Part shown: positions 18,561 through 30,677 of the stretch, in pieces
Position numbering within the stretch: position 1 is the first letter of the stretch
Layout: each line of letters opens with the position of its first letter
Assembly (NCBI GenBank): GCA_030619905.1
Contig: JAUXAO010000002.1
Coordinates: forward strand, 1,193-65,192
DNA: 64,000 nt
Reading direction: 5' to 3'
DNA from: a bacterium
GTDB taxonomy: Bacteria; Patescibacteriota; Minisyncoccia; Minisyncoccales; CG1-02-41-26
Notes under the pieces: generated by a model
The model's database searches: none
What the model was told of the DNA's origin: nothing
What the model saw: only the letters and a program-made list of their open reading frames with translations
Translations under genes and position numbers: made by a program

Positions 18561-19283
18561 TTAGATTGATTTTTGAAGAGCTTTAACAATAGGATTTAAA
18601 TTTCCAGTTAAAATTTTTTCTATATTATGGAATTTCTTGTTAATCCGATGGTCTGTAATTCTGTCCTGTGGAAAATTATAAGTCCTGATTTTTTCTGATC
18701 TCTGAGCCCGACCAATTTGAGTTTTTCTTTCCCCAGCTATTTTATTCTCTATTTCCATCTTTTTCTTTTCAAAAAGCTTGGCTTCCAGGATATTTAAAGC
18801 CGCTTTTTTGTTTTCTTCAAGATTTCTTGAATTTTGGGAAGAAGAAACCAGATTAGTGGGTAAATGGGTAATCCGGACAGCAGTTTGGCGCTTGTTGACA
18901 TATTGGCCTCCTGGACCTGATGCTTTAAAGAAATCTATTCTCAAATCAGAAGGATTTAATTTTACTTGAGTGCTCTTTGGTTTTTCTAAAACAGCAACTG
19001 AAACAGTAGAGGTATGGATCCTATTTCCTTTTTCTGTTTTTGGTACTCTTTGAACCCTATGAACTCCGCCTTCATATTTCATTTTTAAATCAGCATTTTC
19101 ACCTTTTATTTCAAAAATTATCTGTTTTAGACCACCAATCTCTGTCTGATTAGAGTCTAAAATTCTAATTTGCCAGCCTTGTGTCTCAGCGTATTTTGAA
19201 TACATTTTAAAGAGGTCATGAGCAAAAAGAGCGGCTTCTTCTCCGCCAGCTCCACCTCTTATTTCCATAATAATTGATGACAT
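18561..19283 (-). CDS. prfA: peptide chain release factor, RF1-type (PKT tripeptide), lacking the N-terminal domain 1
   Basis: Starts MSSIIMEIRGGAGGEEAALFA. Contains GVHRVQRVPKTEKGNRIHTS and SGPGGQYVNKRQTAVRITHLPT. There is an in-frame stop 7 codons upstream of the ATG, and the rpmE stop lies 1 nt upstream. Confidence 0.8.
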   Translation of the reverse strand: MSSIIMEIRGGAGGEEAALFAHDLFKMYSKYAETQGWQIRILDSNQTEIGGLKQIIFEIKGENADLKMKYEGGVHRVQRVPKTEKGNRIHTSTVSVAVLEKPKSTQVKLNPSDLRIDFFKASGPGGQYVNKRQTAVRITHLPTNLVSSSQNSRNLEENKKAALNILEAKLFEKKKMEIENKIAGERKTQIGRAQRSEKIRTYNFPQDRITDHRINKKFHNIEKILTGNLNPIVKALQKSI

Positions 19284-19284
19284 A

Positions 19285-19494
19285 TTACTTTTTCTTTTTT
19301 GCTAATCTTTCCTTGAATTTTTGTACTTGTCCAGCTGTGTCAATTATTTTTTCTCCCCCAACATAAAAAGGATGACATTTAAAACAGATTTCAGTTTCAA
19401 TAGTTTCCTTGGTTGAGCCAACTTCAAAAGTATTTCCACAAGCACAATGGACTTTTGTCTTTGGATAGTATTTTGGATGAATATCTTTTTTCAT
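19285..19494 (-). CDS. rpmE: 50S ribosomal protein L31 (Zn-ribbon type)
   Basis: [10 protein letters not shown]...CACGN...CFKCHPFY. Confidence 0.9.
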
Positions 19495-20276: not shown

Positions 20277-20335
20277 ATAATCCTTGGGTATTTTATCTCA
20301 TGGAATATGATAAAATCCTTGGGACTAGTTGTGTT

Positions 20336-20920
20336 ATGACAAATATGGATCATCTTAAACAACTTCGTGAAGAAACTGGAATTCCTTTTTTAGAATGTAA
20401 AAATGCTTTAGAGGAAGCTAAAGGCGATATTAAAGAAGCCAAGAAAATTTTAAGAGAGAAAGGAAAAGAGATATCTCAGAGTAAAGTTTTGAGAAAAACA
20501 GAACAGGGGATTATTGAAAGCTACCTACATCCTGGAGGAAAAATCGGAGTCCTTTTAGAAATTTGTTGCGAATCTGATTTTGTTACTAAGTCAGAAGAAT
20601 TCAAAAAATTAGCTCATGAGATTTGTTTACAGATTGCTGCTACAAAACCATTATTTTTAGATGACAAAGATATTTCCGAAGAATTTTTAGAGAGCGAGAA
20701 AAAAATCTATCAAAAACAATTTAAAGACTCAGGTAAACCTCAAAAAATAGTTGATCAGATTATTGAAGGGAAGTTATCGAAATACAAGAAAGAAGTTTGT
20801 CTTTTAAATCAATCCTGGGTAAAAGACGAAGCAAAGACAATAAAAGATTTAATTAGTGAATACAGTTTAAAACTCGGAGAAAATATCAAAGTTGAAAAGT
20901 TTACAAGATACGAGATATAA
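20336..20920 (+). CDS. tsf: translation elongation factor Ts (short form)
   Basis: LKQLREETGIPFLECKNALEEAKGDIKEA and CESDFV. The start at ATG 20336 or 20345 fits the family better than 20300. Confidence 0.88.
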   Translation: MTNMDHLKQLREETGIPFLECKNALEEAKGDIKEAKKILREKGKEISQSKVLRKTEQGIIESYLHPGGKIGVLLEICCESDFVTKSEEFKKLAHEICLQIAATKPLFLDDKDISEEFLESEKKIYQKQFKDSGKPQKIVDQIIEGKLSKYKKEVCLLNQSWVKDEAKTIKDLISEYSLKLGENIKVEKFTRYEI

Positions 20921-21056: not shown

Positions 21057-21119
21057 GTTTTTCTGATCTATTCCATTTAGTTTTTTTAAGGATGTCCGAT
21101 TGGATAATCGGACGAGTAT
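21057..21119 (+). other. 16S leader half of the precursor processing stem
   Basis: AATCGGACGAGTAT (21106-21119) is the perfect reverse complement of 23542-23555. TTTTTCTGATCTATTCCATTTAG (21057-21080) pairs with 23581-23603. Confidence 0.7.
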
Positions 21120-21976
21120 TTTTGAGAGTTTGATCCTAGCTCAGGATGAACGCTGGCGGCGTGGATAAGGCATGCAAGTCGCGGGAGGCTTCGAGCCTAC
21201 CGGCGAATGGGTTAGTAACACGTAGATAACATACCCCAGAGATAGGGATAATCCGTCGAAAGGCGGACTAATACCTAATGGTCCGAGCACATAATACTTT
21301 ATATGTTCGGTAAAGGTTTCGAGCAATCGTTTCTGCTCTGGGAGTGGTCTGCGGCCTATCAGCTAGTTGGTAAGGTAATGGCTTACCAAGGCAATGACGG
21401 GTAGGGGGTGTGAGAGCACGATCCCCAACAGAGGCACTGAGACACGGGCCTCACTCCTACGGGAGGCAGCAGTCGAGAATCTTCGGCAATGGGCGAAAGC
21501 CTGACCGAGCGACGCCGCGTGCAGGAAGAATGCCTTCGGGTTGTAAACTGCTTTTAACCGAGAGGAACCTTCGGGTGACAGTATCGGTTGAATAAGGGGG
21601 TGCTAACTCTGTGCCAGCAGCAGCGGTAATACAGAGCCCCCAAGCGTTATCCGGATTTATTGGGCGTAAAGGGTCCGTAGACTCCTCGTCAAGTTTTCTA
21701 TTAAATCTTCAGGGCTTAACCTTGAAGCTGTGGGAAAAACTAACGAGGTAGAGGGCGTTAGAGGCCAGTGGAATACACGGTGTAGGGGTGAAATCCGTTG
21801 ATATCGTGTAGAACACCAAAAGCGAAAGCAGCTGGCTGGAGCGACCCTGACGTTGAGGGACGAAAGCGTGGGGAGCGAAGAGGATTAGATACCCTCGTAG
21901 TCCACGCCCTAAACGATGGATGCTAGCTGGTGGGAGTGTCGACCCTTTCACTGGCGAAGCTAACGCGTTAAGCATC

Positions 21977-22018
<42 letters not shown>

Positions 22019-22486
22019 AGACGGGGGTCTACACAAGCGGTGGATCACGTGGCTTAATTCGACGACAAGCGAAGAACCTTACCAGGGCTTGACATGTTAA
22101 GTGAAAACTCGAGGAAACTTGAGACTCCGCAAGGCACTTAATACAGGTGCTGCATGGTTGTCGTCAGCAGGTGTCGTGAGATGCTCCCTTAAATGGGGAA
22201 ACCTGCGCAACCCTTGTCCTATGTTTTATTTGTCATAGGGAACCGCCTCATTTTATGAGGAGGAAGGTGAGGACGACGTCAAATCAGCATGGCCCTTATG
22301 TCCTGGGCAGCACACGTGGTACAATGGCCGGTACAAAGAGTTGCCAAAGCGCAAGCTGGAGCTAATCTCATCAAAACCGGTCTCAGTTCGGATCGAGGTC
22401 TGAAACTCGACCTCGTGAAGCTGGAATCGCTAGTAATCGCGAATCAGCTATGTCGCGATGAATATGTCCCTAGACCTTGTACTCAC

Positions 22487-23318
22487 AATTAAACGCGCCC
22501 GGCAGATACATAAACTAAAGAGTTAAAATCTCTTTCTCTACGATTCGTCAGTAGAGCATAGTTGAAAGATAGTTATCCATCGCGAGATGGATAGCGGAGG
22601 ATCTGGAAACAAATAGTAGCCCGAGTTATTAAGAGTTAGTCGACCCATGAACAGGTGGTGAGCATGGGGAAGATTATTTTATAAGCTCAGCTTGGGATGT
22701 TAGGAATAGTTTATGTATTGACCCGGGGAGATCTGATGTTGTATAATGGAACTAACGCAGCGTCAGAAGTCAGCTGGATCATAGTATCTCACTTCTAGTG
22801 GGAAAAGGATCCTCTCTAATTCATGCTTAATTCTAATTACATTATCGGTTTAGTAGATGGTGAAGGTAGCTTTACAGTTTATATTCGTAATTCCAAAGAG
22901 AGTAAATCTGTAAAAAGAAGAGTTAAAGCAGAACCTAGATTTTACGTAAAATTGATAGAGAAAGATAAAAAAATTCTTTATGAATTGAAAAAGTTCTTTG
23001 GTTGTGGAAATGTCTACTTCCAAAGAGACAAACGTAAAAATCACCAAAATTGCTACCGTTATGAAGTAGCCAATCGTAAAGACATAGAGAATGTTATTAT
23101 ACCTTTTTTTAAAGAGCATCAACTTAAGATTTACTCAAAGAAAAAAGATTTCAGAATTTTCTGCAAGATAATAAATCTAATGAAAAAGGGGAAACATTTA
23201 GAAGATAAAGGTTTACAAGAATTGTATAGAATTAAGCAAGAAATGCATTAGAGCTCGCCGTATGCGGGAAATCCGCACGTATGGTGGGAACGTCAACTCT
23301 AAGTTCCTAGAGAACATT
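22487..23318 (+). mobile_element. intervening sequence/intron in 16S between E. coli-equivalent positions 1399 and 1400, carrying a homing endonuclease ORF
   Basis: Exon ...CCTTGTACTCAC ends at 22486 and CGCCCGTCACA resumes at 23319. Together they reconstitute the universal GYACACACCGCCCGT segment. Confidence 0.75.
22823..23251 (+). CDS. LAGLIDADG homing endonuclease, single-motif (homodimer-type)
   Basis: 142 aa; YIIGLVDGEGSF motif near the N-terminus; located inside the 16S insertion. Confidence 0.85.
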   Translation: MLNSNYIIGLVDGEGSFTVYIRNSKESKSVKRRVKAEPRFYVKLIEKDKKILYELKKFFGCGNVYFQRDKRKNHQNCYRYEVANRKDIENVIIPFFKEHQLKIYSKKKDFRIFCKIINLMKKGKHLEDKGLQELYRIKQEMH

Positions 23319-23541
23319 CGCCCGTCACATTAGGGAAGCCGGTAATAGCCGAAACTCCAGCTTGTCTGGGTCTAAGCTAAGATCGGTAACCAGAATGAAG
23401 TCGTAACAAGGCACGGCTAGGGGAACCTGGTCGTGGATCATTTCTTTTTTTTGAATTGGTTGACAAGATTTGAAAATTGAGAATTCTATTTTCAAATCTT
23501 AGATGTTAGTCAAGTCATCTTATAAATTGACTATTCACTCT

Positions 23542-23603
23542 ATACTCGTCCGATTTTTCGATCAGATATCTAGTAAATAGCTAAGTGGGATAGATCAGAA
23601 AAA
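23542..23603 (+). other. 16S trailer half of the precursor processing stem
   Basis: ATACTCGTCCGATT and CTAAGTGGGATAGATCAGAAAAA are complementary to 21106-21119 and 21057-21080. Confidence 0.7.
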
Positions 23604-23741: not shown

Positions 23742-23815
23742 GGGCGATTAGCTCAGCTGGTTAGAGCGTTCCTCTGATAAGGGAGAGGTCCGAGGTTCGA
23801 ATCCTCGATCGCCCA
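23742..23815 (+). tRNA. tRNA-Ile (anticodon GAU)
   Basis: GGGCGAT...ATCGCCC acceptor, anticodon loop CTGATAA, T-arm CGAGGTTCGAATCCTCG. Confidence 0.9.
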
Positions 23816-23823
23816 ATAAAAAC

Positions 23824-24096
23824 ATGCCAAATGAAGAAAACAAGGGAAATGAAGTAATAGATTACAGCAAGTTTTTTGAAAGAGAAAAGGGGAAGAAAGT
23901 AGAAATTCCTCAGAAAAAAGAGAAGTTTTCTTTTAGTTTTTTAAAAAATCTTTGGTCTGAAATGGACAAAAAAACAAAAGTAGAATTGATAGTTCTCTTA
24001 GTAGTAATTATAATGATAATTGGTATTTTAGTTTTTTATTTTTTGCAGATGAAAGCTTTTGAAGTTCTCCCAGTTCCACTTCCAGCTGAGTATTAA
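23824..24096 (+). CDS. small single-pass membrane protein (module 1), paralog of 24684..24974
   Basis: 90 aa; charged N-terminus DYSKFFEREKGKKVEIPQKKEKFSFSFLKNLWSEMDKKTKVELI, then a TM helix; no family recognised. Confidence 0.5.
   Translation: MPNEENKGNEVIDYSKFFEREKGKKVEIPQKKEKFSFSFLKNLWSEMDKKTKVELIVLLVVIIMIIGILVFYFLQMKAFEVLPVPLPAEY
23863..23991 (+). repeat. 129-bp perfect direct repeat, copy 1
   Basis: Identical base for base to 24717-24845 by manual comparison. Flanks on both sides diverge immediately. Confidence 0.95.
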
Positions 24097-24118
24097 ATTA
24101 GTTAAGAATTTCAGAAAT

Positions 24119-24652
24119 ATGGAGAATAATGAAAAAAGTAAAAAGGGTTTTACTTTAATTGAATTACTAGTGGTAATTGCTGTTATTAGTCTCTTAGCTT
24201 CAGTGGTTATGGTAGCTTTTCCAGGAGCTACAAAAAAAGCCAGAGATGCAGAAAGATTACAAGATACACATCAAATCCTTACAGCTCTTCTTATATATAA
24301 AACAAATGAGGGTCGATATCCTAGTATATCTGGAGATGCTTGTTGTGATGGTTGGGACCAAGGACCTTGTGGAACAGATCCTTTTATTGGAGCCTTGATA
24401 GATAGCGGTACGGCAACTATAGTCCCAACAGATCCAAGTGGTGGTTCGGGAACAGGGTGTTACGGATATAATTATTATCGTTATGGAGCTGGAAATTATG
24501 GTTGCGATTCGTCAAAAGGTGCGTTTTTCGTCTTAGGTGTTCGAGATATGGAAGCGAGTGGAAGACCTCATCCCGATAGTCTTGGTTGGAGCTGTTCAGG
24601 TAGAAACTGGCAGAATGAATTTGACTGGGTTACTGGAGGATTTGAAAAATAA
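24119..24652 (+). CDS. type IV pilin-like / type II secretion pseudopilin-like protein (module 1)
   Basis: Class III signal peptide MENNEKSKKG|FTLIELLVVIAVISLLASVVMVAFP. The Cys/Gly/Tyr-rich globular part contains VPTDPSGG. Confidence 0.8.
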   Translation: MENNEKSKKGFTLIELLVVIAVISLLASVVMVAFPGATKKARDAERLQDTHQILTALLIYKTNEGRYPSISGDACCDGWDQGPCGTDPFIGALIDSGTATIVPTDPSGGSGTGCYGYNYYRYGAGNYGCDSSKGAFFVLGVRDMEASGRPHPDSLGWSCSGRNWQNEFDWVTGGFEK

Positions 24653-24683
24653 CTTATCTAAAATATTATAAATTAAAAAAGCT

Positions 24684-24974
24684 ATGGATTTAAATAAAAA
24701 AAATGATGCAGTAGACTACAGCAAGTTTTTTGAAAGAGAAAAGGGGAAGAAAGTAGAAATTCCTCAGAAAAAAGAGAAGTTTTCTTTTAGTTTTTTAAAA
24801 AATCTTTGGTCTGAAATGGACAAAAAAACAAAAGTAGAATTGATAATTTTTTTGATAGTAGTTTTAATAACTCTTGGTATTTTAACTTTTCATTTTTTAA
24901 GAGAAATTAAAACACCAGAATTATTTATATATCCTCCCTCTCAGAGAGTGGATTTTTTACCATATGAAAAATAA
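24684..24974 (+). CDS. small single-pass membrane protein (module 2)
   Basis: 96 aa; shares the 43-residue DYSKFF...KVELI block with module 1, then a divergent TM helix and tail. Confidence 0.5.
   Translation: MDLNKKNDAVDYSKFFEREKGKKVEIPQKKEKFSFSFLKNLWSEMDKKTKVELIIFLIVVLITLGILTFHFLREIKTPELFIYPPSQRVDFLPYEK
24717..24845 (+). repeat. 129-bp perfect direct repeat, copy 2
   Basis: Identical to 23863-23991; the offset is 854 bp. Confidence 0.95.
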
Positions 24975-25467
24975 TATTTATTTTTTTAAAAAAGGGTTTA
25001 CTTTAGTTGAATTATTAGTAGTAATTTCCGTTATTGGTCTTTTGACTTCAGTCGTTCTAGTTTCTTTTCCGACATCAACGAAAAAAACAAGGGATGCAAT
25101 AAAGATGCGGGAATTAAAGCAAATTCAGACAGCTTTACGTTTATATTACGATATTTACCACCAAATGCCTGTTAATAGAACTCCGGGATTTGGTTATTGT
25201 GATGACCAGCCAAATTTTTTACAGGAAATAGTAGATGCAAAATTATGGCCTGACAATCCAAAGAGTCCAAGCGAGGGACATTATTGCTATTATGATTATG
25301 ATGTTGATAATTCAACAGGAGCTTTATTAGTAGTGACATTGGAAAGCTATTCTGGAACAGATGGGATTCTTGGGTCGTGTCGTCCTTGGGCTGCTGGTGA
25401 GAGTTGGTGCGATAAAAGTGATAATAATTATCATTGCCTTTGTACTCCTTATTCCCCTTATTGGTAG
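24964..25467 (+). CDS. type IV pilin-like protein (module 2)
   Basis: MKNNIYFFKKG|FTLVELLVVISVIGLLTSVVLVSFP. The C-terminal domain is divergent and Cys-containing. Overlaps the preceding small ORF by 11 nt. Confidence 0.8.
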   Translation: MKNNIYFFKKGFTLVELLVVISVIGLLTSVVLVSFPTSTKKTRDAIKMRELKQIQTALRLYYDIYHQMPVNRTPGFGYCDDQPNFLQEIVDAKLWPDNPKSPSEGHYCYYDYDVDNSTGALLVVTLESYSGTDGILGSCRPWAAGESWCDKSDNNYHCLCTPYSPYW

Positions 25468-25477
25468 AGATAAAGAC

Positions 25478-25515
25478 GGGCTCGTAGCTTAGCTGGAAGA
25501 GCGCCGATGTTGCAT
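25478..25515 (+). other. orphan 5' half of a tRNA-Ala(UGC)-like gene, ending in the anticodon loop
   Basis: GGGCTCG-TA-GCTT-AGCTGGAA-GAGC-G-CCGAT-GTTGCAT folds as acceptor 5' strand, D-arm, anticodon 5' stem and loop. I found no matching ATCGG...CGAGCCC 3' half downstream. Confidence 0.5.
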
Positions 25516-25767
25516 AAATAGAGTAACTTCCTAGGACATCTGAATACTTGCGGTAGTAGCAACCATTGGTTATAATATAATAAAAGTATGTCGAAGAAGG
25601 AACAAGGAACAATAGGGCTGTTGCGGGTTGCACAATAGCTATCAACTTCTCGGTTATAACGTTTTGCTTCCACTCGATGGTAAACAGAGGAGAATCCAAC
25701 TGAGAGTCTCTCGAACGAGAAACAATCAGAAAAAGAATATTCGACTAGCAGATGATTATCTGCTTCC

Positions 25768-25841
25768 GGGCCTGTAGTTCAGTTGGTTAGAATACCTCAT
25801 TTGCAATGAGGAGATCGCCGGTTCGAATCCGGCCAGGTCCA
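25768..25841 (+). tRNA. tRNA-Ala (anticodon UGC)
   Basis: Acceptor GGGCCTG/CAGGTCC gives the G3:U70 identity pair; anticodon loop TTTGCAA; T-arm GCCGGTTCGAATCCGGC. Confidence 0.9.
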
Positions 25842-25902
25842 AAATTTATTTATTTTTTATAAAGGTCGACTTTAAAGAACTAAGTTTAATTATAACAATA
25901 TT

Positions 25903-26580
25903 ATGGTTGAAAATTGGTCAGGTATTACATTATTAGCTTTACAAGATTTCTGGCAGGGATTTTTGAGTTTTATGCCACGTCTTGTTGGAGCAATAATTAT
26001 AATTCTTATTGGTTGGTTTATTGCTGATTGGATTGGAAGATTGGTAACCGAGGTTTTAAGGAAATTAAAGTTTGACCGGATTTTTGAAAGAACTCAATGG
26101 CAAGATGCTCTGGAAAAAGCAGAATTTAAAGTTTCTGTTTCTCATTTTTTTGGAGAGATTGTTCAATGGATTTTAGTGATTGTCTTTTTACTAGCAGCTG
26201 TAGAAGTTTTAGGGAGCCGTCAATTCGCTATTTTCCTAAACAAGATAGTTAATTGGCTTCCAAATTTAATAGTAGCAGTTGCCATTTTTGTGGTGGCAGT
26301 AATTATTGCTGACTTTGCTAAGAAAATAATCCAGGCAGTTGTAGAGAAAGCAAAAGTAGCGCATTCAGAATTAATATCATCAGTTGTTCAATGGTCAATT
26401 TGGGTTTTTGCCCTTTTTGCTATTTTAATTCAATTGGGGATTGCCAGAGAATTGATTCAGATCTTATTTACTGGACTTATTGGTTTGGTTGTAATTAGTT
26501 GTGGAATTGCTTTTGGATTAGGAGGAAAAGATTTAGCCAGAGATATCCTGAATGGTTTAAGAAACAACTTAAAGAAATAA
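25903..26580 (+). CDS. multi-pass membrane protein with repeated 'conserved TM helix' units (MscS-N-terminal-like)
   Basis: 225 aa. Repeated pattern of a hydrophobic helix plus a charged linker (e.g. LVGAIIIILIGWFIADWIGRLV, IVAVAIFVVAVIIADFAKKI). Family assignment is by recollection. Confidence 0.5.
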   Translation: MVENWSGITLLALQDFWQGFLSFMPRLVGAIIIILIGWFIADWIGRLVTEVLRKLKFDRIFERTQWQDALEKAEFKVSVSHFFGEIVQWILVIVFLLAAVEVLGSRQFAIFLNKIVNWLPNLIVAVAIFVVAVIIADFAKKIIQAVVEKAKVAHSELISSVVQWSIWVFALFAILIQLGIARELIQILFTGLIGLVVISCGIAFGLGGKDLARDILNGLRNNLKK

Positions 26581-26830: not shown

Positions 26831-27394
26831 AGGAATTATCTAAAAATAATTTTAAGGGCAAATGGTGGATGCCTTGGGAGTGGGAGGCGATGAAGGACGT
26901 GGCGTGGCTGCGATAAGCTTCGGGGAGGTGCTTAGCAACCTTTGATCCGGAGATTTCCGAATGGGGAAACCCGATTGCGTAAAACGCAATCGACTCATCA
27001 AAAAGGTGAGTCGCGAACCCGGGGAAGTGAAACATCTCAGTACCCGGAGGAAAAGAAAACAATGCCAGTGTTTTACACTGGTGCATTCCCTTAGTAGTGG
27101 CGAGCGAAAAGGGAAGAGCCCAAACCGAATACATAATTTATTATGTGTTCGGGGTTGTAAGAAAATAACGTCGGGAGCTAAGCATATAATTTTTATATGC
27201 TTAGTGCCTGAGGGAGAGCATTTAGACAAAAGTTGGTTAGGAGAAATTTCCTGGAAAGGAATACCATAGAGGGTGATAGTCCCGTATCTGAAAATCCTTT
27301 TGTGCTCCTTGTTATTTCTCTTAAGTACCTCAGGAAATGAAAGCCCTGAGGGAAGCATCCGTGACTATGCGGAAAGGCTAAATACTACCCACTC

Positions 27395-27435
<41 letters not shown>

Positions 27436-29365
27436 GCCCGGTGAGGGCGATGAAATAGAACCTGAAACCATTTGCTCACAAGGAGTCAGAGCCGAGCATA
27501 TAACTTGTTATATGTTTGGTGATGGCGTGCCTATTGAAGAATGAGCCAACGAGTTCAAACATATAGCTGTTTAAGTCCTTATGGGACGAAAGCAGAGCGA
27601 AAGCAAGTGTTAAAAGCGCGTTTAAAGCTGTCTGTTTGAGACCCGAAGCCAAGCGAGCTTGCCATGACCAGGGTGAGTTCCGCCGAAAGGCGGAAGGAGG
27701 CCCGAACCCGTGAGCCGTACAATACTCTGGGATGAGTTGTGGTAAGGAGTGAAAAGCTAAACGAGCTTGGTAATAGCTGGTTCTCCCCGAAATAGCTTTT
27801 GGGCTAGCCTCAGGTAAATAAACTATAGGGGTAGAGCACTGGATGGTTTATTATGGGATTTTCCTAGGTAAATCAACCAAACTCCGAATACTATAGTGTG
27901 TTATCCTGGGAGTCAGACTGTGGGGGCTAAGCTCCATGGTCAAAAGGGAAACAGCCCAGATCATAATCTAAGGTCCCTAAATTCGAGCTAAGTGTACTAA
28001 GGAAGTAGAGTCTCTTCGATAGCTAGGAGGTTAGCTTAGAAGCAGCTATCCTTTAAAAAGTGCGTAATAGCTTACTAGCTAAGAGTCTTTGCGCCGAAAA
28101 TTCAGGGGGCTCAAGCTCGATACCGAAGATATGGAGCCTTGTGCTTTGCACAGGGTTGATAGGGGAGCGTCCTCTTTGCATTGAAGTTCCGCTGTAAGGT
28201 TGGGATGGAGCGAAGAGGAGTGAGAATGTTGGCATGAGTAACCGCAATCTCGGTGAAAGTCCGAGACACCGAAAGCCTAAGGTTTCCTTGGCAATGACAA
28301 TCAGCCAAGGGTTAGGCGGTCCTAAGGTGAACCCGAAAGGGGTAGCCGATGGACAGCCGGTTAATATTCCGGCCCCTCCATTAAAGCCAAAGAGAAGACG
28401 AAGAGTCTCAACTGAGAGAGTTATTGGATTCTCTTCTTTGTGCTTCGGCATGAGGGAAGTTTTAGTTTCGGCTGAAACAACTCAGTGTAAAACTTTTCCT
28501 AGAAAATTCTTAGAGGAATACTTTAATGGAGTCCGTACCATAAACCGACACAGGTAGGCTAGTGTAAGTATACTAAGGTGAACGAGTGAAAGCTCCTGAA
28601 GGAACTCGGCAAAAAAGTGGTCGTAAGTTTGCAATAAGACCTGCCACCGTAAGGTGGCCACAGAAACATTTCCCTGGCGACTGTTTATCAAAAACACAGG
28701 TCCCTGCTTAACTTGAAAAAGGATGTATAGGGGCTGAGACCTGACCAGTGCCGGAGTGTTAATGTTGCCGGTCCAAGTATGTAACTTGTTATATATTCGG
28801 GCTGAGCGATTGAAGCCTCCGGTGAACGTCCGCGGTAACTCTGACCGTGTTAAAGTAGCATAATCCCTTGCCAGGTAAGTTCTGGCCCGCATGAATGGTT
28901 CCACGACTGGGGAACTGTCTCCAGGAGTTGCTCGGTGAAAATGCAATCCTCGTGAAGATGCGAGGTACCTGCGGCTAGACGGAAAGACCCCGGGAGCTTT
29001 ACTGTTCCCAGATATTGGTCTCTGATTTTGGATGCGTAGAGTAGGTGGTAGACTTTGAATCTTGACTTTCGGGTCAGGAGGAGTCGCCAATGAAACACCA
29101 CCCTTTCAGAATCATAGTTCTAATCCGTTATAAAGCGGAAACAGTGTCTGGTAGACAGTTTAAGTGGGGCGCTTGCCTCCTAAAAGGTAACGGAGGCGTT
29201 TAAAGGTCGGCTAGCTCCGGATGGAAATCGGAGTGATAGGACAAAGCCAAAAGCCGGCTTTACTGCAAGGCGGCTATGCCGCGCAGTTGCGAAAGCAGAA
29301 CTTAGTGAACCGACCCCGGTTAATAGGACCGGGGAAGATTATCAGATAAAAGTTACCCCGGGGAT

Positions 29366-29752
29366 AGACTCTGCTCCGCCAATTGGCGGAAAAAAGAGTT
29401 TGTTGTCCAACCCATTTTAAGTATATAGCTTATTATATGCTTGAACCGAGAACACGAAATTTTGTGTTTCGGCCGTAAGGATGGGAATGTACGGCTTATA
29501 ACGGTAAAACTAAAACCGGTCTTTCTCAGATAATTTTGAGTTTTAGAGTTTTAGCAATACCGTGGGAAGTCGGCGCATTTACTTCGTAAATACTAAATCA
29601 AGAGAGTGGAGTAAGCGCTTGACCCCGTAACGACTGAGACTTTATGTCGAGATAGTGGGTACCTGGTAACCAGGAATTAAACCATTATCATACGCCGTCC
29701 CCACTATATTTATATTAGTGGGTGAAGATATAGTCTAATCTTAAAAAGATTG
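29366..29752 (+). mobile_element. group I intron A (387 nt, no ORF) at the E. coli-equivalent L2449 site
   Basis: Exon GGGGAT|...G|AACAGGCTGG, so the 5' exon ends in U and the intron ends in G. Contains ACTGAGACTTT (R-like) and GAAGATATAGTC (S element). Confidence 0.72.
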
Positions 29753-29803
29753 AACAGGCTGGTAGGGCCCGAGAGTTCATATCTACGGCCCTGTTCGGCA
29801 CCT

Positions 29804-30677
29804 CAAAAAAAACGACAAATCGGGGTGCTATGACAGTAATGTCATACCAAAAATTTGGCTAATAACGGTGAAACCCAAGTCTTTTTATGTTAAAATAAAA
29901 AGATGGGCAATACCGTGGGAAGTCTAACTCAAGTAGAAAAATCAATTATTATTGGATCACTTTTGGGTGATGGGTATTTAAGAATTGTTCCAGGAAGGAA
30001 AAATGCATTTCTCGAAGTTAATCATAGTATATCTCAAAAAGAATACGTAGATTGGAAATTTCGGAAATTGAGAAATATAATAAAAAATCCACCAAAAGAA
30101 AGAAAAGGAAAAGGGAAAAGAATAGCTTACAGATTTTTTACACAACAACATCCTGAATTAACAGAATTATATTTAAGATTTTACAGTAATAAAGTTAAAA
30201 TTATTCCTGATCTGAAATTGAATCCATTAATTATAGCAGTATGGTTTATGGATGATGGAAGTAAAAGTTATAAAACTTACTACTTAAATACTCAAAGTTT
30301 TGATTATCTATCGCAGAAGAGATTTGTGCAAATTCTTAAAAAACAATACGATATTAATAGTTCGTTGAATCGAGATAAACAATACTATCGTATTAGAATA
30401 AAACAAGATAGCGCAAAGAGATTCAAAAAATTGATTTATAACCATATAATTTCTTCAATGAAATATAAACTTAATGAGTTATGACCCCGTAGAGACTTTG
30501 TCCCTAGAGGACAGGATAGAAGGTGCTTTGTAATAAAGATTTAAACTTCTATAATACGCCAACTCCACCAAATTTTAGCAGGTTAAGAAGATTACTTCTT
30601 CTTTACCTTCGCTTTTGCTTTACAAAAGTTCGGTGGATGAAGATATAGTCCATACTATTAGAAATAATAGATAAATG
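29804..30677 (+). mobile_element. group I intron B (874 nt, endonuclease-bearing) at the E. coli-equivalent L2500 site
   Basis: Exon GGCACCT|...G|CGATGTCGGCTCATC. Contains GTAGAGACTTT and GAAGATATAGTCC core elements. Confidence 0.8.
29903..30484 (+). CDS. LAGLIDADG homing endonuclease, double-motif (monomer-type)
   Basis: 193 aa; IIIGSLLGDGYL and LIIAVWFMDDGS motifs; located within intron B. Confidence 0.85.
   Translation: MGNTVGSLTQVEKSIIIGSLLGDGYLRIVPGRKNAFLEVNHSISQKEYVDWKFRKLRNIIKNPPKERKGKGKRIAYRFFTQQHPELTELYLRFYSNKVKIIPDLKLNPLIIAVWFMDDGSKSYKTYYLNTQSFDYLSQKRFVQILKKQYDINSSLNRDKQYYRIRIKQDSAKRFKKLIYNHIISSMKYKLNEL

Follow-up and report, generated by a model that had tools for sequence, protein, structure and literature searches.

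The window, as we call the whole 64-kb stretch of DNA analysed here, carries a 16S rRNA gene (rrs) in which UUUCU stands in place of the anti-Shine-Dalgarno (anti-SD) core CCUCC. This is very probably a functional rrs from a Gribaldobacteria-like member of the Parcubacteria (Candidate Phyla Radiation) that has lost its anti-SD core by drift and initiates translation without rRNA:mRNA pairing. The evidence consists of the tail itself and its return in related genomes, an intact rRNA, sequence upstream of genes that is complementary neither to the canonical tail nor to the real one, and the statistics of start-codon contexts. The affiliation follows the best named homologue of EF-Ts, which is from Candidatus Gribaldobacteria (85% identical), and the gene order shared with Gribaldobacteria contigs (GAPDH, PTAC, acetate kinase, PPDK, PfkB, Fer4, L25, SLT, RF1, L31, S2, EF-Ts, 16S). 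The window has a G+C content of 33.8% and encodes many housekeeping proteins, including FtsZ, enolase, GAPDH, PPDK, DnaK/DnaJ/GrpE, several Mur ligases, Ddl, aminoacyl-tRNA synthetases, and the ribosomal proteins S2, L9 and L25. It holds a single rrs; any second copy would lie elsewhere in the genome, beyond the 64 kb covered.

Read directly, with coordinates re-derived, the nucleotides at 23435-23448 (forward strand, as are all rRNA and tRNA coordinates below) are GGATCATTTCTTTT. In a global alignment of 16S 3′ ends, the tail GGAUCA|UUUCU|UUU lies opposite GGAUCA|CCUCC|UUA of E. coli. The hexamer GGAUCA (E. coli 1529-1534) is conserved at 23435..23440 and is invariant in the alignment except for one GGAACA (L017). 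UUUCU then occupies 23441..23445, directly after GGAUCA, where CCUCC (E. coli 1535-1539) is expected; the same 5-mer occurs in relatives. The replacement proposed by the original prediction is borne out. That prediction had counted four altered positions in the five-nucleotide core, whereas the alignment gives three (C1535U, C1536U and C1539U), with a further change, A1542U, outside the core. A run of U follows at 23446..23452, and downstream of UUUCU the sequence differs from relative to relative. The absence of CCTCC, earlier claimed for the next 60 nt, extends in a sequence scan from 23441 as far as the tRNA-Ile gene at 23742. The putative 3′ end was placed at 23448, the position homologous to the end of mature E. 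coli 16S, in agreement with its earlier placement.

The Rfam match to the small subunit rRNA ends at 22539, with the last ∼150 model positions in a forced, low-quality alignment. This end is false and arises because an 832-nt insertion, which has the character of an intron, interrupts the gene at 22487..23318, between E. coli positions 1399 and 1400. Exon 1 (21118..22486; E. coli ∼1 to 1399; Rfam RF00177, 1308.6 bits) ends in CTTGTACTCAC, and its end and the boundaries of the insertion were fixed against four intron-less relatives (L006, L002, L003 and L009), in whose 16S genes the insertion is absent. Exon 2 (23319..23448), which was aligned with the 3′ domain of E. coli, runs from CGCCCGUCACA through GUCGUAACAAGG and helix 45 to GGAUCA and the tail. 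The gene thus conforms to the bacterial small subunit model, exon 1 by RF00177 and the last 130 nt by hand and by pairwise alignment to E. coli. The universal 16S motifs GCCCGTCACA (23320-23329) and GTCGTAACAAGG (23400-23411) are followed by the hairpin of helix 45; the 3′-domain motifs GCCCGUCACA, GUCGUAACAAGG and GGAUCA are all present, and the decoding-centre motifs in the exons are fully conserved in the alignment to E. coli.

Helix 45 (23412..23435) comprises 10 bp closed by a GGAA loop and is intact. In a 3′-end alignment of the window with 14 relatives, all 150 of 150 cells are standard pairs, and compensatory changes on both sides are found in five of the ten pairs. The covariation score across these 15 sequences was reached by none of 500 shuffles, and no slid register comes near it. 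The pairing and covariation indicate that selection acts as far as GGAUCA. A leader strand (21089..21118) and a trailer strand (23542..23572) are predicted by RNAduplex to form a stem of ∼30 bp (−38.7 kcal/mol) that looks like the usual processing stem of the 16S precursor. The operon continues with tRNA-Ile(GAU) at 23742..23815, and its order is tRNA-Thr, 16S, tRNA-Ile, tRNA-Ala, 23S (large subunit match, 1918 bits) and 5S.

By every test that the sequence affords, then, the gene looks functional. The original prediction had itself raised the prospect of a pseudo-copy, and one could picture a decaying or chimeric rrs, or an assembly artefact, with the real 16S of the organism keeping a canonical tail: an 832-nt insertion interrupts the gene, Rfam fails to align its 3′ end, and our view is limited to 64 kb of the genome. 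Such a copy would not be expected to combine fully conserved decoding-centre motifs, a perfectly paired helix 45 with compensatory changes, an intact leader/trailer stem and a complete operon with tRNA-Ile, tRNA-Ala, 23S and 5S. Non-canonical tails are also found at the syntenic locus in assemblies of separate origin (JGI, ENA and NCBI), and rRNA insertions with homing endonucleases have been described from some candidate-phyla bacteria (PMC9297842, citing Brown et al. 2015). We therefore consider a pseudo-copy or artefact extremely unlikely.

The insertion sits in the decoding-centre strand of 16S. It contains an open reading frame for a LAGLIDADG_1 homing endonuclease at 22823-23251 (Pfam PF00961, E=2e-18), together with sub-threshold Rfam matches to RF01998 (22734-22810, 31.4 bits) and to domain V of RF00029 (23256-23286, 24.4 bits). 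These elements resemble a group II intron, with a good domain-V-like hairpin at 23256-23286, and the insertion begins with AAUUAAAC, not with GUGYG. A homologous insertion is present in L005 (74% identity over 815 nt), partial matches occur in L008 and L010, and L017 encodes a 142-residue LAGLIDADG_1 protein in the equivalent gap. A different intron lies inside GUCGUA|ACAAGG, at approximately E. coli 1497-1500, in L011-L013, L015 and L016 (for example, L011 13327-14140), and contains a LAGLIDADG_3 reading frame in L011-L013 and L016. Since introns occupy two 16S sites among the relatives, the 3′ minor domain is a recurrent intron target in this clade. The 23S gene is affected as well: group I intron-like insertion(s) with three sub-threshold RF00028 matches span 29433-30671 and include a LAGLIDADG_2 endonuclease reading frame at 29903-30484 (E=1.4e-40), and the true 3′ part of 23S runs from 30528 to ∼31050. 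The Rfam matches at 21118-22539 (small subunit) and 26840-29423 (large subunit) each claim full model coverage and yet end ∼900 and ∼1600 nt early, respectively, because, with introns in the way, the 3′ domains are aligned spuriously. Automatic annotation would consequently mis-call the 3′ ends of both 16S and 23S, and with them the anti-SD.

In the survey of related genomes that had been proposed, each relative looked at had a 16S ending in UUUCU or in a comparably degenerate tail. Scanning one genome per species for the pattern GTCGTAACAAGG-N18-30-GGATCATTTCT returned ten contigs (L001-L010). Nine come from candidate-phyla genomes labelled Paceibacterota, Gribaldobacteria or ‘Saccharibacteria’ and have the identical tail, and their 16S sequences are 80-88% identical to that of the window where exon 1 is fully covered. 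All ten were selected for UUUCU, so that they document recurrence rather than frequency and inflate the apparent conservation of the tail. The tenth, a 1.7-kb contig from a Gammaproteobacteria bin (L004, JALSUJ010000499.1, 1077-1122), also has the tail GGAUCAUUUCU; its 16S is unrelated to that of the window, with which it shares 69% identity in a partial match of 250 nt, and its helix 45 is a different one. The contig represents either an independent loss of the anti-SD or a mis-binned symbiont or organelle-like sequence.

An unbiased sample was obtained by fetching syntenic relatives through EF-Ts regardless of tail (L011-L017) and reading their 3′ ends by BLAST with exon 2 as well as directly. 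GGAUCA-UUUCU was found in L011-L013 and in L015, GGAACA-UUUCU in L017, GGAUCA-UUUUU in L014 and GGAUCA-UUACA in L016; thus, none of the five syntenic lineages has a CCUCC tail and three of the five have UUUCU. These non-canonical tails occur at a shared locus (S2, EF-Ts, tRNA-Thr, 16S) in assemblies of independent origin (JGI, ENA and NCBI), and the presence of a degenerate tail in every relative examined argues against chance, sequencing error and assembly effects alike. In a broader metagenome scan that required a Parcubacteria-type helix 45 and left the tail free, there were at least 120 matches (L019-L138), 119 with readable tails. Among the matches listed, CCUCC was present in 54 of 119 tails (45%), and the other 65 included AUUAA (14), UAUCC (8), UUUUU (5), CUACA (5), UCUCC (4), AUUCC (3) and UUUCU (2), along with many singletons. 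A mixture of this kind looks like decay in many directions and not like convergence on a new motif. Two regularities were noted in the same 119 listed tails: G is essentially absent (0-1%) from positions 1-8 after GGAUCA in any variant, and position 3 (U1537) is U in 89%.

The occurrence of UUUCU in lineages whose 16S sequences share only 80-88% identity could mean that some constraint on the tail remains. In that case, GGAUCAUUUCU would be kept for a role other than mRNA pairing, such as docking of platform proteins, maturation of the 3′ end or regulation of special mRNAs, one or a few in number. The tail of Bacteroidia, for instance, is held by bS21/bS18/bS6 (PMC7797042), and Flavobacteria keep one gene, rpsU, that uses the anti-SD (PMC9976891, PMC13000453). 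The identity of UUUCU across this range while the sequence just downstream varies, and the lack of G at positions 1-8 among the 119 listed Parcubacteria-type tails, would both fit such a role. The unbiased syntenic sample nevertheless drifts, to UUUUU in L014 and UUACA in L016, the broad metagenome sample is highly heterogeneous, the conservation seen in L001-L010 is inflated by their selection for UUUCU, and no candidate target mRNA was seen within the window. We judge retention for another function to be unlikely. A composite reading, in which GGAUCAUUUCU is kept for a non-SD role in the Gribaldobacteria-like clade while starts are chosen by their A-rich/U(−1) context through extended pairing with A37 in the anticodon loop of the initiator tRNA, seems to us equally improbable; if true, such a retained tail and such a reading of context would amount to a distinct initiation signal for a large uncultured radiation. 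We thus favour loss of the core by drift.

For the mRNA side, we compared duplex energies of the −20..−1 windows against the canonical tail GAUCACCUCCUUA and the real tail GAUCAUUUCUUUU with those of shuffled controls. Genes in all sets were called from the first in-frame ATG (≥100-120 codons, non-overlapping, rRNA regions excluded), and the analysis covers 43 genes of the 64-kb window and 106 genes of relatives. The first in-frame ATG is wrong for at least EF-Ts, and some of the upstream windows are therefore misplaced. For EF-Ts (20300-20920), the longest reading frame begins 12 codons early, the homologues being 194 residues long and placing the true start at 20336; longest-frame starts are accordingly not always right in this genome.

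With the canonical tail, the mean ΔG upstream of the 43 window genes is −2.22 against −1.99 for shuffled sequence (z=−1.0), and upstream of the 106 genes of relatives it is −1.70 against −1.58 (z=−0.8). By way of comparison, 50 genes of Staphylococcus phage K, an AT-rich, SD-using control, gave −8.42 against −4.45 (z=−15.4), with GGAG upstream of 62% of genes, so that the method does detect SD use at such base composition. GGAGG occurs within −20..−1 of 2% of the 43 window genes. The earlier observation that most start codons here lack a GGAGG-like motif therefore holds, and the genes it had named as examples were identified by Pfam as FtsZ, a nucleotidyl transferase, a TrxB-like protein, Hsp70, DnaJ and Ddl. 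SD-independent initiation, as the original prediction had proposed, is supported by these data, with z values of −1.0 and −0.8 in the two gene sets against −15 for the control.

The only strong SD-like string in the window, GGAGGAGG at 237-244, precedes a reading frame at 246-2570 that encodes a DUF2229/HGD-D, CoA-enzyme-activase-like protein. We rejected it as a genuine SD because it is inside an upstream reading frame that overlaps the next gene; it thereby agrees with the earlier remark that GGAG strings before overlapping genes lie in the preceding coding sequence. This upstream frame is open from the start of the window and stops at TGA (253-255), past the next start, and the pair of frames around 237-255 may represent a fusion gene that is split or frameshifted.

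At the listed Parcubacteria loci with a canonical tail, GGAG precedes 14% of genes, compared with 3% within genes (z=−8.1), indicating weak but real SD use; for listed loci with non-canonical tails, a group that includes near-canonical ones, the figures are 7% and 7% (z=−3.1).

The original prediction had also entertained a shifted pairing code, in which UUUCU or the longer UCAUUUCUUUU pairs with AGAAA-type leader motifs in replacement of GGAGG:CCUCC. Pairing that persists despite an altered core has been documented in other organisms (category iii in PMC10783764), the leaders here are A-rich and contain strings such as AAGAAA, and 19 genes have AGAAA upstream where 13.6±3.1 would be expected (z about 1.7). 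Yet the predicted energy of pairing to the real tail at −20..−1 is indistinguishable from that of shuffled sequence, both in the window (−2.35 vs −2.40, z=+0.2) and in the relatives (−1.82 vs −1.79, z=−0.3), and it is weaker than within genes (−3.4 and −3.0). Indeed, in window and relatives alike, either tail is predicted to pair less strongly with sequence upstream of genes than with sequence inside them, and a shifted code is accordingly not supported. The 5-mers complementary to the tail are not among the enriched words, pairing by A-U alone is worth close to 0 kcal/mol, and relatives with the same kind of leaders have other tails (UUUUU, UUACA, AUUAA, UAUCC and others). The leaders, moreover, lack the enrichment for the complement of the tail that would be expected of the altered-specificity SD:anti-SD systems of category iii, and U at −1 (see below) clashes with pairing that extends through the CAU of the tail. 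A replacement code of this kind is very improbable.

Two variants of this idea were considered and rejected. In the first, CAU in GGAU-CAU-UUCU would pair with AUG together with an upstream AGAA; the nucleotide at −1 is U in 68% of genes, so that U would face U there, and AGAAAUG shows no enrichment. In the second, A-rich leaders would have evolved to pair with the U-run; the predicted pairing of the real tail, taken as 13 or 17 nt, is weaker upstream than within genes. Initiation without rRNA:mRNA pairing thus remains the preferred reading, and no replacement pairing code seems to have arisen.

If the ribosome does not read an SD, the starts have other features by which they might be told apart. 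In the 146-149 pooled genes, A makes up 50-58% of positions −11..−2 and G and C fall to 3-14% (G, 3-13%), and the 40 nt around the AUG fold at −1.8 kcal/mol, compared with about −4.3 on either side. U occupies position −1 in 101 of 149 genes (68%); the share is 20% at 674 internal in-frame AUGs (Fisher p=2e-28) and 32% in phage K. Competing start codons are scarce: out-of-frame AUGs number 13 at −24..−1 (31.7±5.2 expected) and 11 at +4..+27 (33.8±5.4 expected) in the 149 genes, a depletion of about 2.5-3-fold on both sides; control regions are less strongly depleted. Not all genes can be leaderless, since many abut or overlap their upstream neighbour. Parcubacteria loci that keep CCUCC, among those listed, have U at −1 in 57% of genes, and the preference is therefore not a consequence of anti-SD loss.

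These findings suggest how initiation may proceed in this lineage. SD use would have been low in the group already, a proposal that fits the weak SD use at canonical-tail loci, and the anti-SD would then have decayed in about half of the lineages; loss across the clade, with tails that are heterogeneous and degenerate, likewise points to decay after SD use had become rare. Drift within the window's own lineage would have turned CCUCC into UUUCU. Starts would be marked by a weakly structured region around AUG that is rich in A and poor in G and C, by the strong preference for U(−1) and by the paucity of competing AUGs. Accessibility may then guide the 30S subunit to the start, possibly with the help of bS1, initiation factors or an extended U(−1):A37 pairing. 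That U(−1) acts by pairing with A37 of the initiator tRNA is speculation on our part.

For annotation, start prediction based on the SD will fail on genomes of this type, and the U(−1)/A-rich context together with AUG depletion could improve start calling in candidate-phyla genomes. To specialists in translation initiation or candidate-phyla genomics, the findings are within expectation.

Several other features of the window were recorded. Protein-coding genes lie inside the rrn operon (23824-26580): two pilin-like proteins with N-terminal methylation motifs (24059-24652 and 24964-25467) are encoded between tRNA-Ile and tRNA-Ala, and a protein with the transmembrane helices of a mechanosensitive channel (25903-26580) between tRNA-Ala and 23S. 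L011-L013 and L015 share this arrangement, and L017 retains the channel gene alone. A class-I release factor of 240 residues is encoded on the reverse strand at 18561-19283, directly after the L31 gene (about 19298-19492, also reverse). It matches the PCRF profile from position 101 on and is missing domain 1; it keeps the PKT (RF1-type) and GGQ motifs, and the form in relatives is also short (237-255 residues).

Loss of the anti-SD in Parcubacteria has been published (PMC10783764, PMC9297842), and the window adds one more member to a known kind; a literature search combining Patescibacteria/Parcubacteria with Shine-Dalgarno returned nothing beyond the works cited here. According to Tsurumaki et al. 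2022 (RNA 28:1041; PMC9297842), the anti-SD is missing in a subgroup of Parcubacteria that overlaps the group lacking uL1, and the motif CCUCCU is detected in 48% of Parcubacteria. The rplK-rplA region lies outside the window. The window belongs to the same superphylum-level group and likewise lacks CCUCCU at the 16S 3′ end, rRNA insertions are found in both, and the 48% is close to the 45% of canonical tails among our 119 listed ends. The earlier work reports presence or absence of the motif only, without replacement sequences or an analysis of the mRNA side, and Gribaldobacteria are not named in the text consulted.

A second survey (PLoS One 2024, PMC10783764) assigns Campbellbacteria, Wolfebacteria, SR1 and Peregrinibacteria to a category iv, ‘SD-scarce lacking CCUCC’, in whose candidate-phyla members 2-7% of genes have an SD. 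The window resembles this category in lacking CCUCC and in having very few genes with predicted rRNA:leader pairing: its tail variant is common to relatives, leader pairing is scarce in the 43 and 106 genes on which our estimate is based, and the affiliation is with the Parcubacteria/Paceibacterota. The lineage of the window is not among the representative examples in that study.

Anti-SD loss is also recurrent in reduced genomes, according to Nikolaeva et al. 2021 (PMC7782861), citing Lim et al. 2012 and Amin et al. 2018. The tiny-genome symbionts and Mollicutes described there resemble the window in the lineage-specific decay of the anti-SD, which goes with AT-rich, reduced genomes and is associated with simplified ribosomes, but they belong to other phyla (insect endosymbionts and haemoplasmas), whereas the organism of the window is part of a free-standing environmental radiation.

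The mRNA side resembles that of Bacteroidia, in which mRNAs have no SDs and initiation takes place in A-rich regions of little structure (PMC6847099; Jha et al. 2021, PMC7797042), and AUG triplets are under-represented near the start codon there as they are in the window and its relatives. For Flavobacterium johnsoniae, the roles of A-richness, low structure and AUG depletion at starts have been shown experimentally (Baez et al. 2019, PMC6847099). The strongest single-position signal differs, being U(−1), at 68%, in our genes and A at −3 in the work on Bacteroidia. The two groups also differ in the fate of the rRNA: Bacteroidia mostly retain CCUCC and hide it under bS21/bS18/bS6 (PMC7797042), whereas in the window the anti-SD is not sequestered but absent, the lineage having lost the sequence itself.
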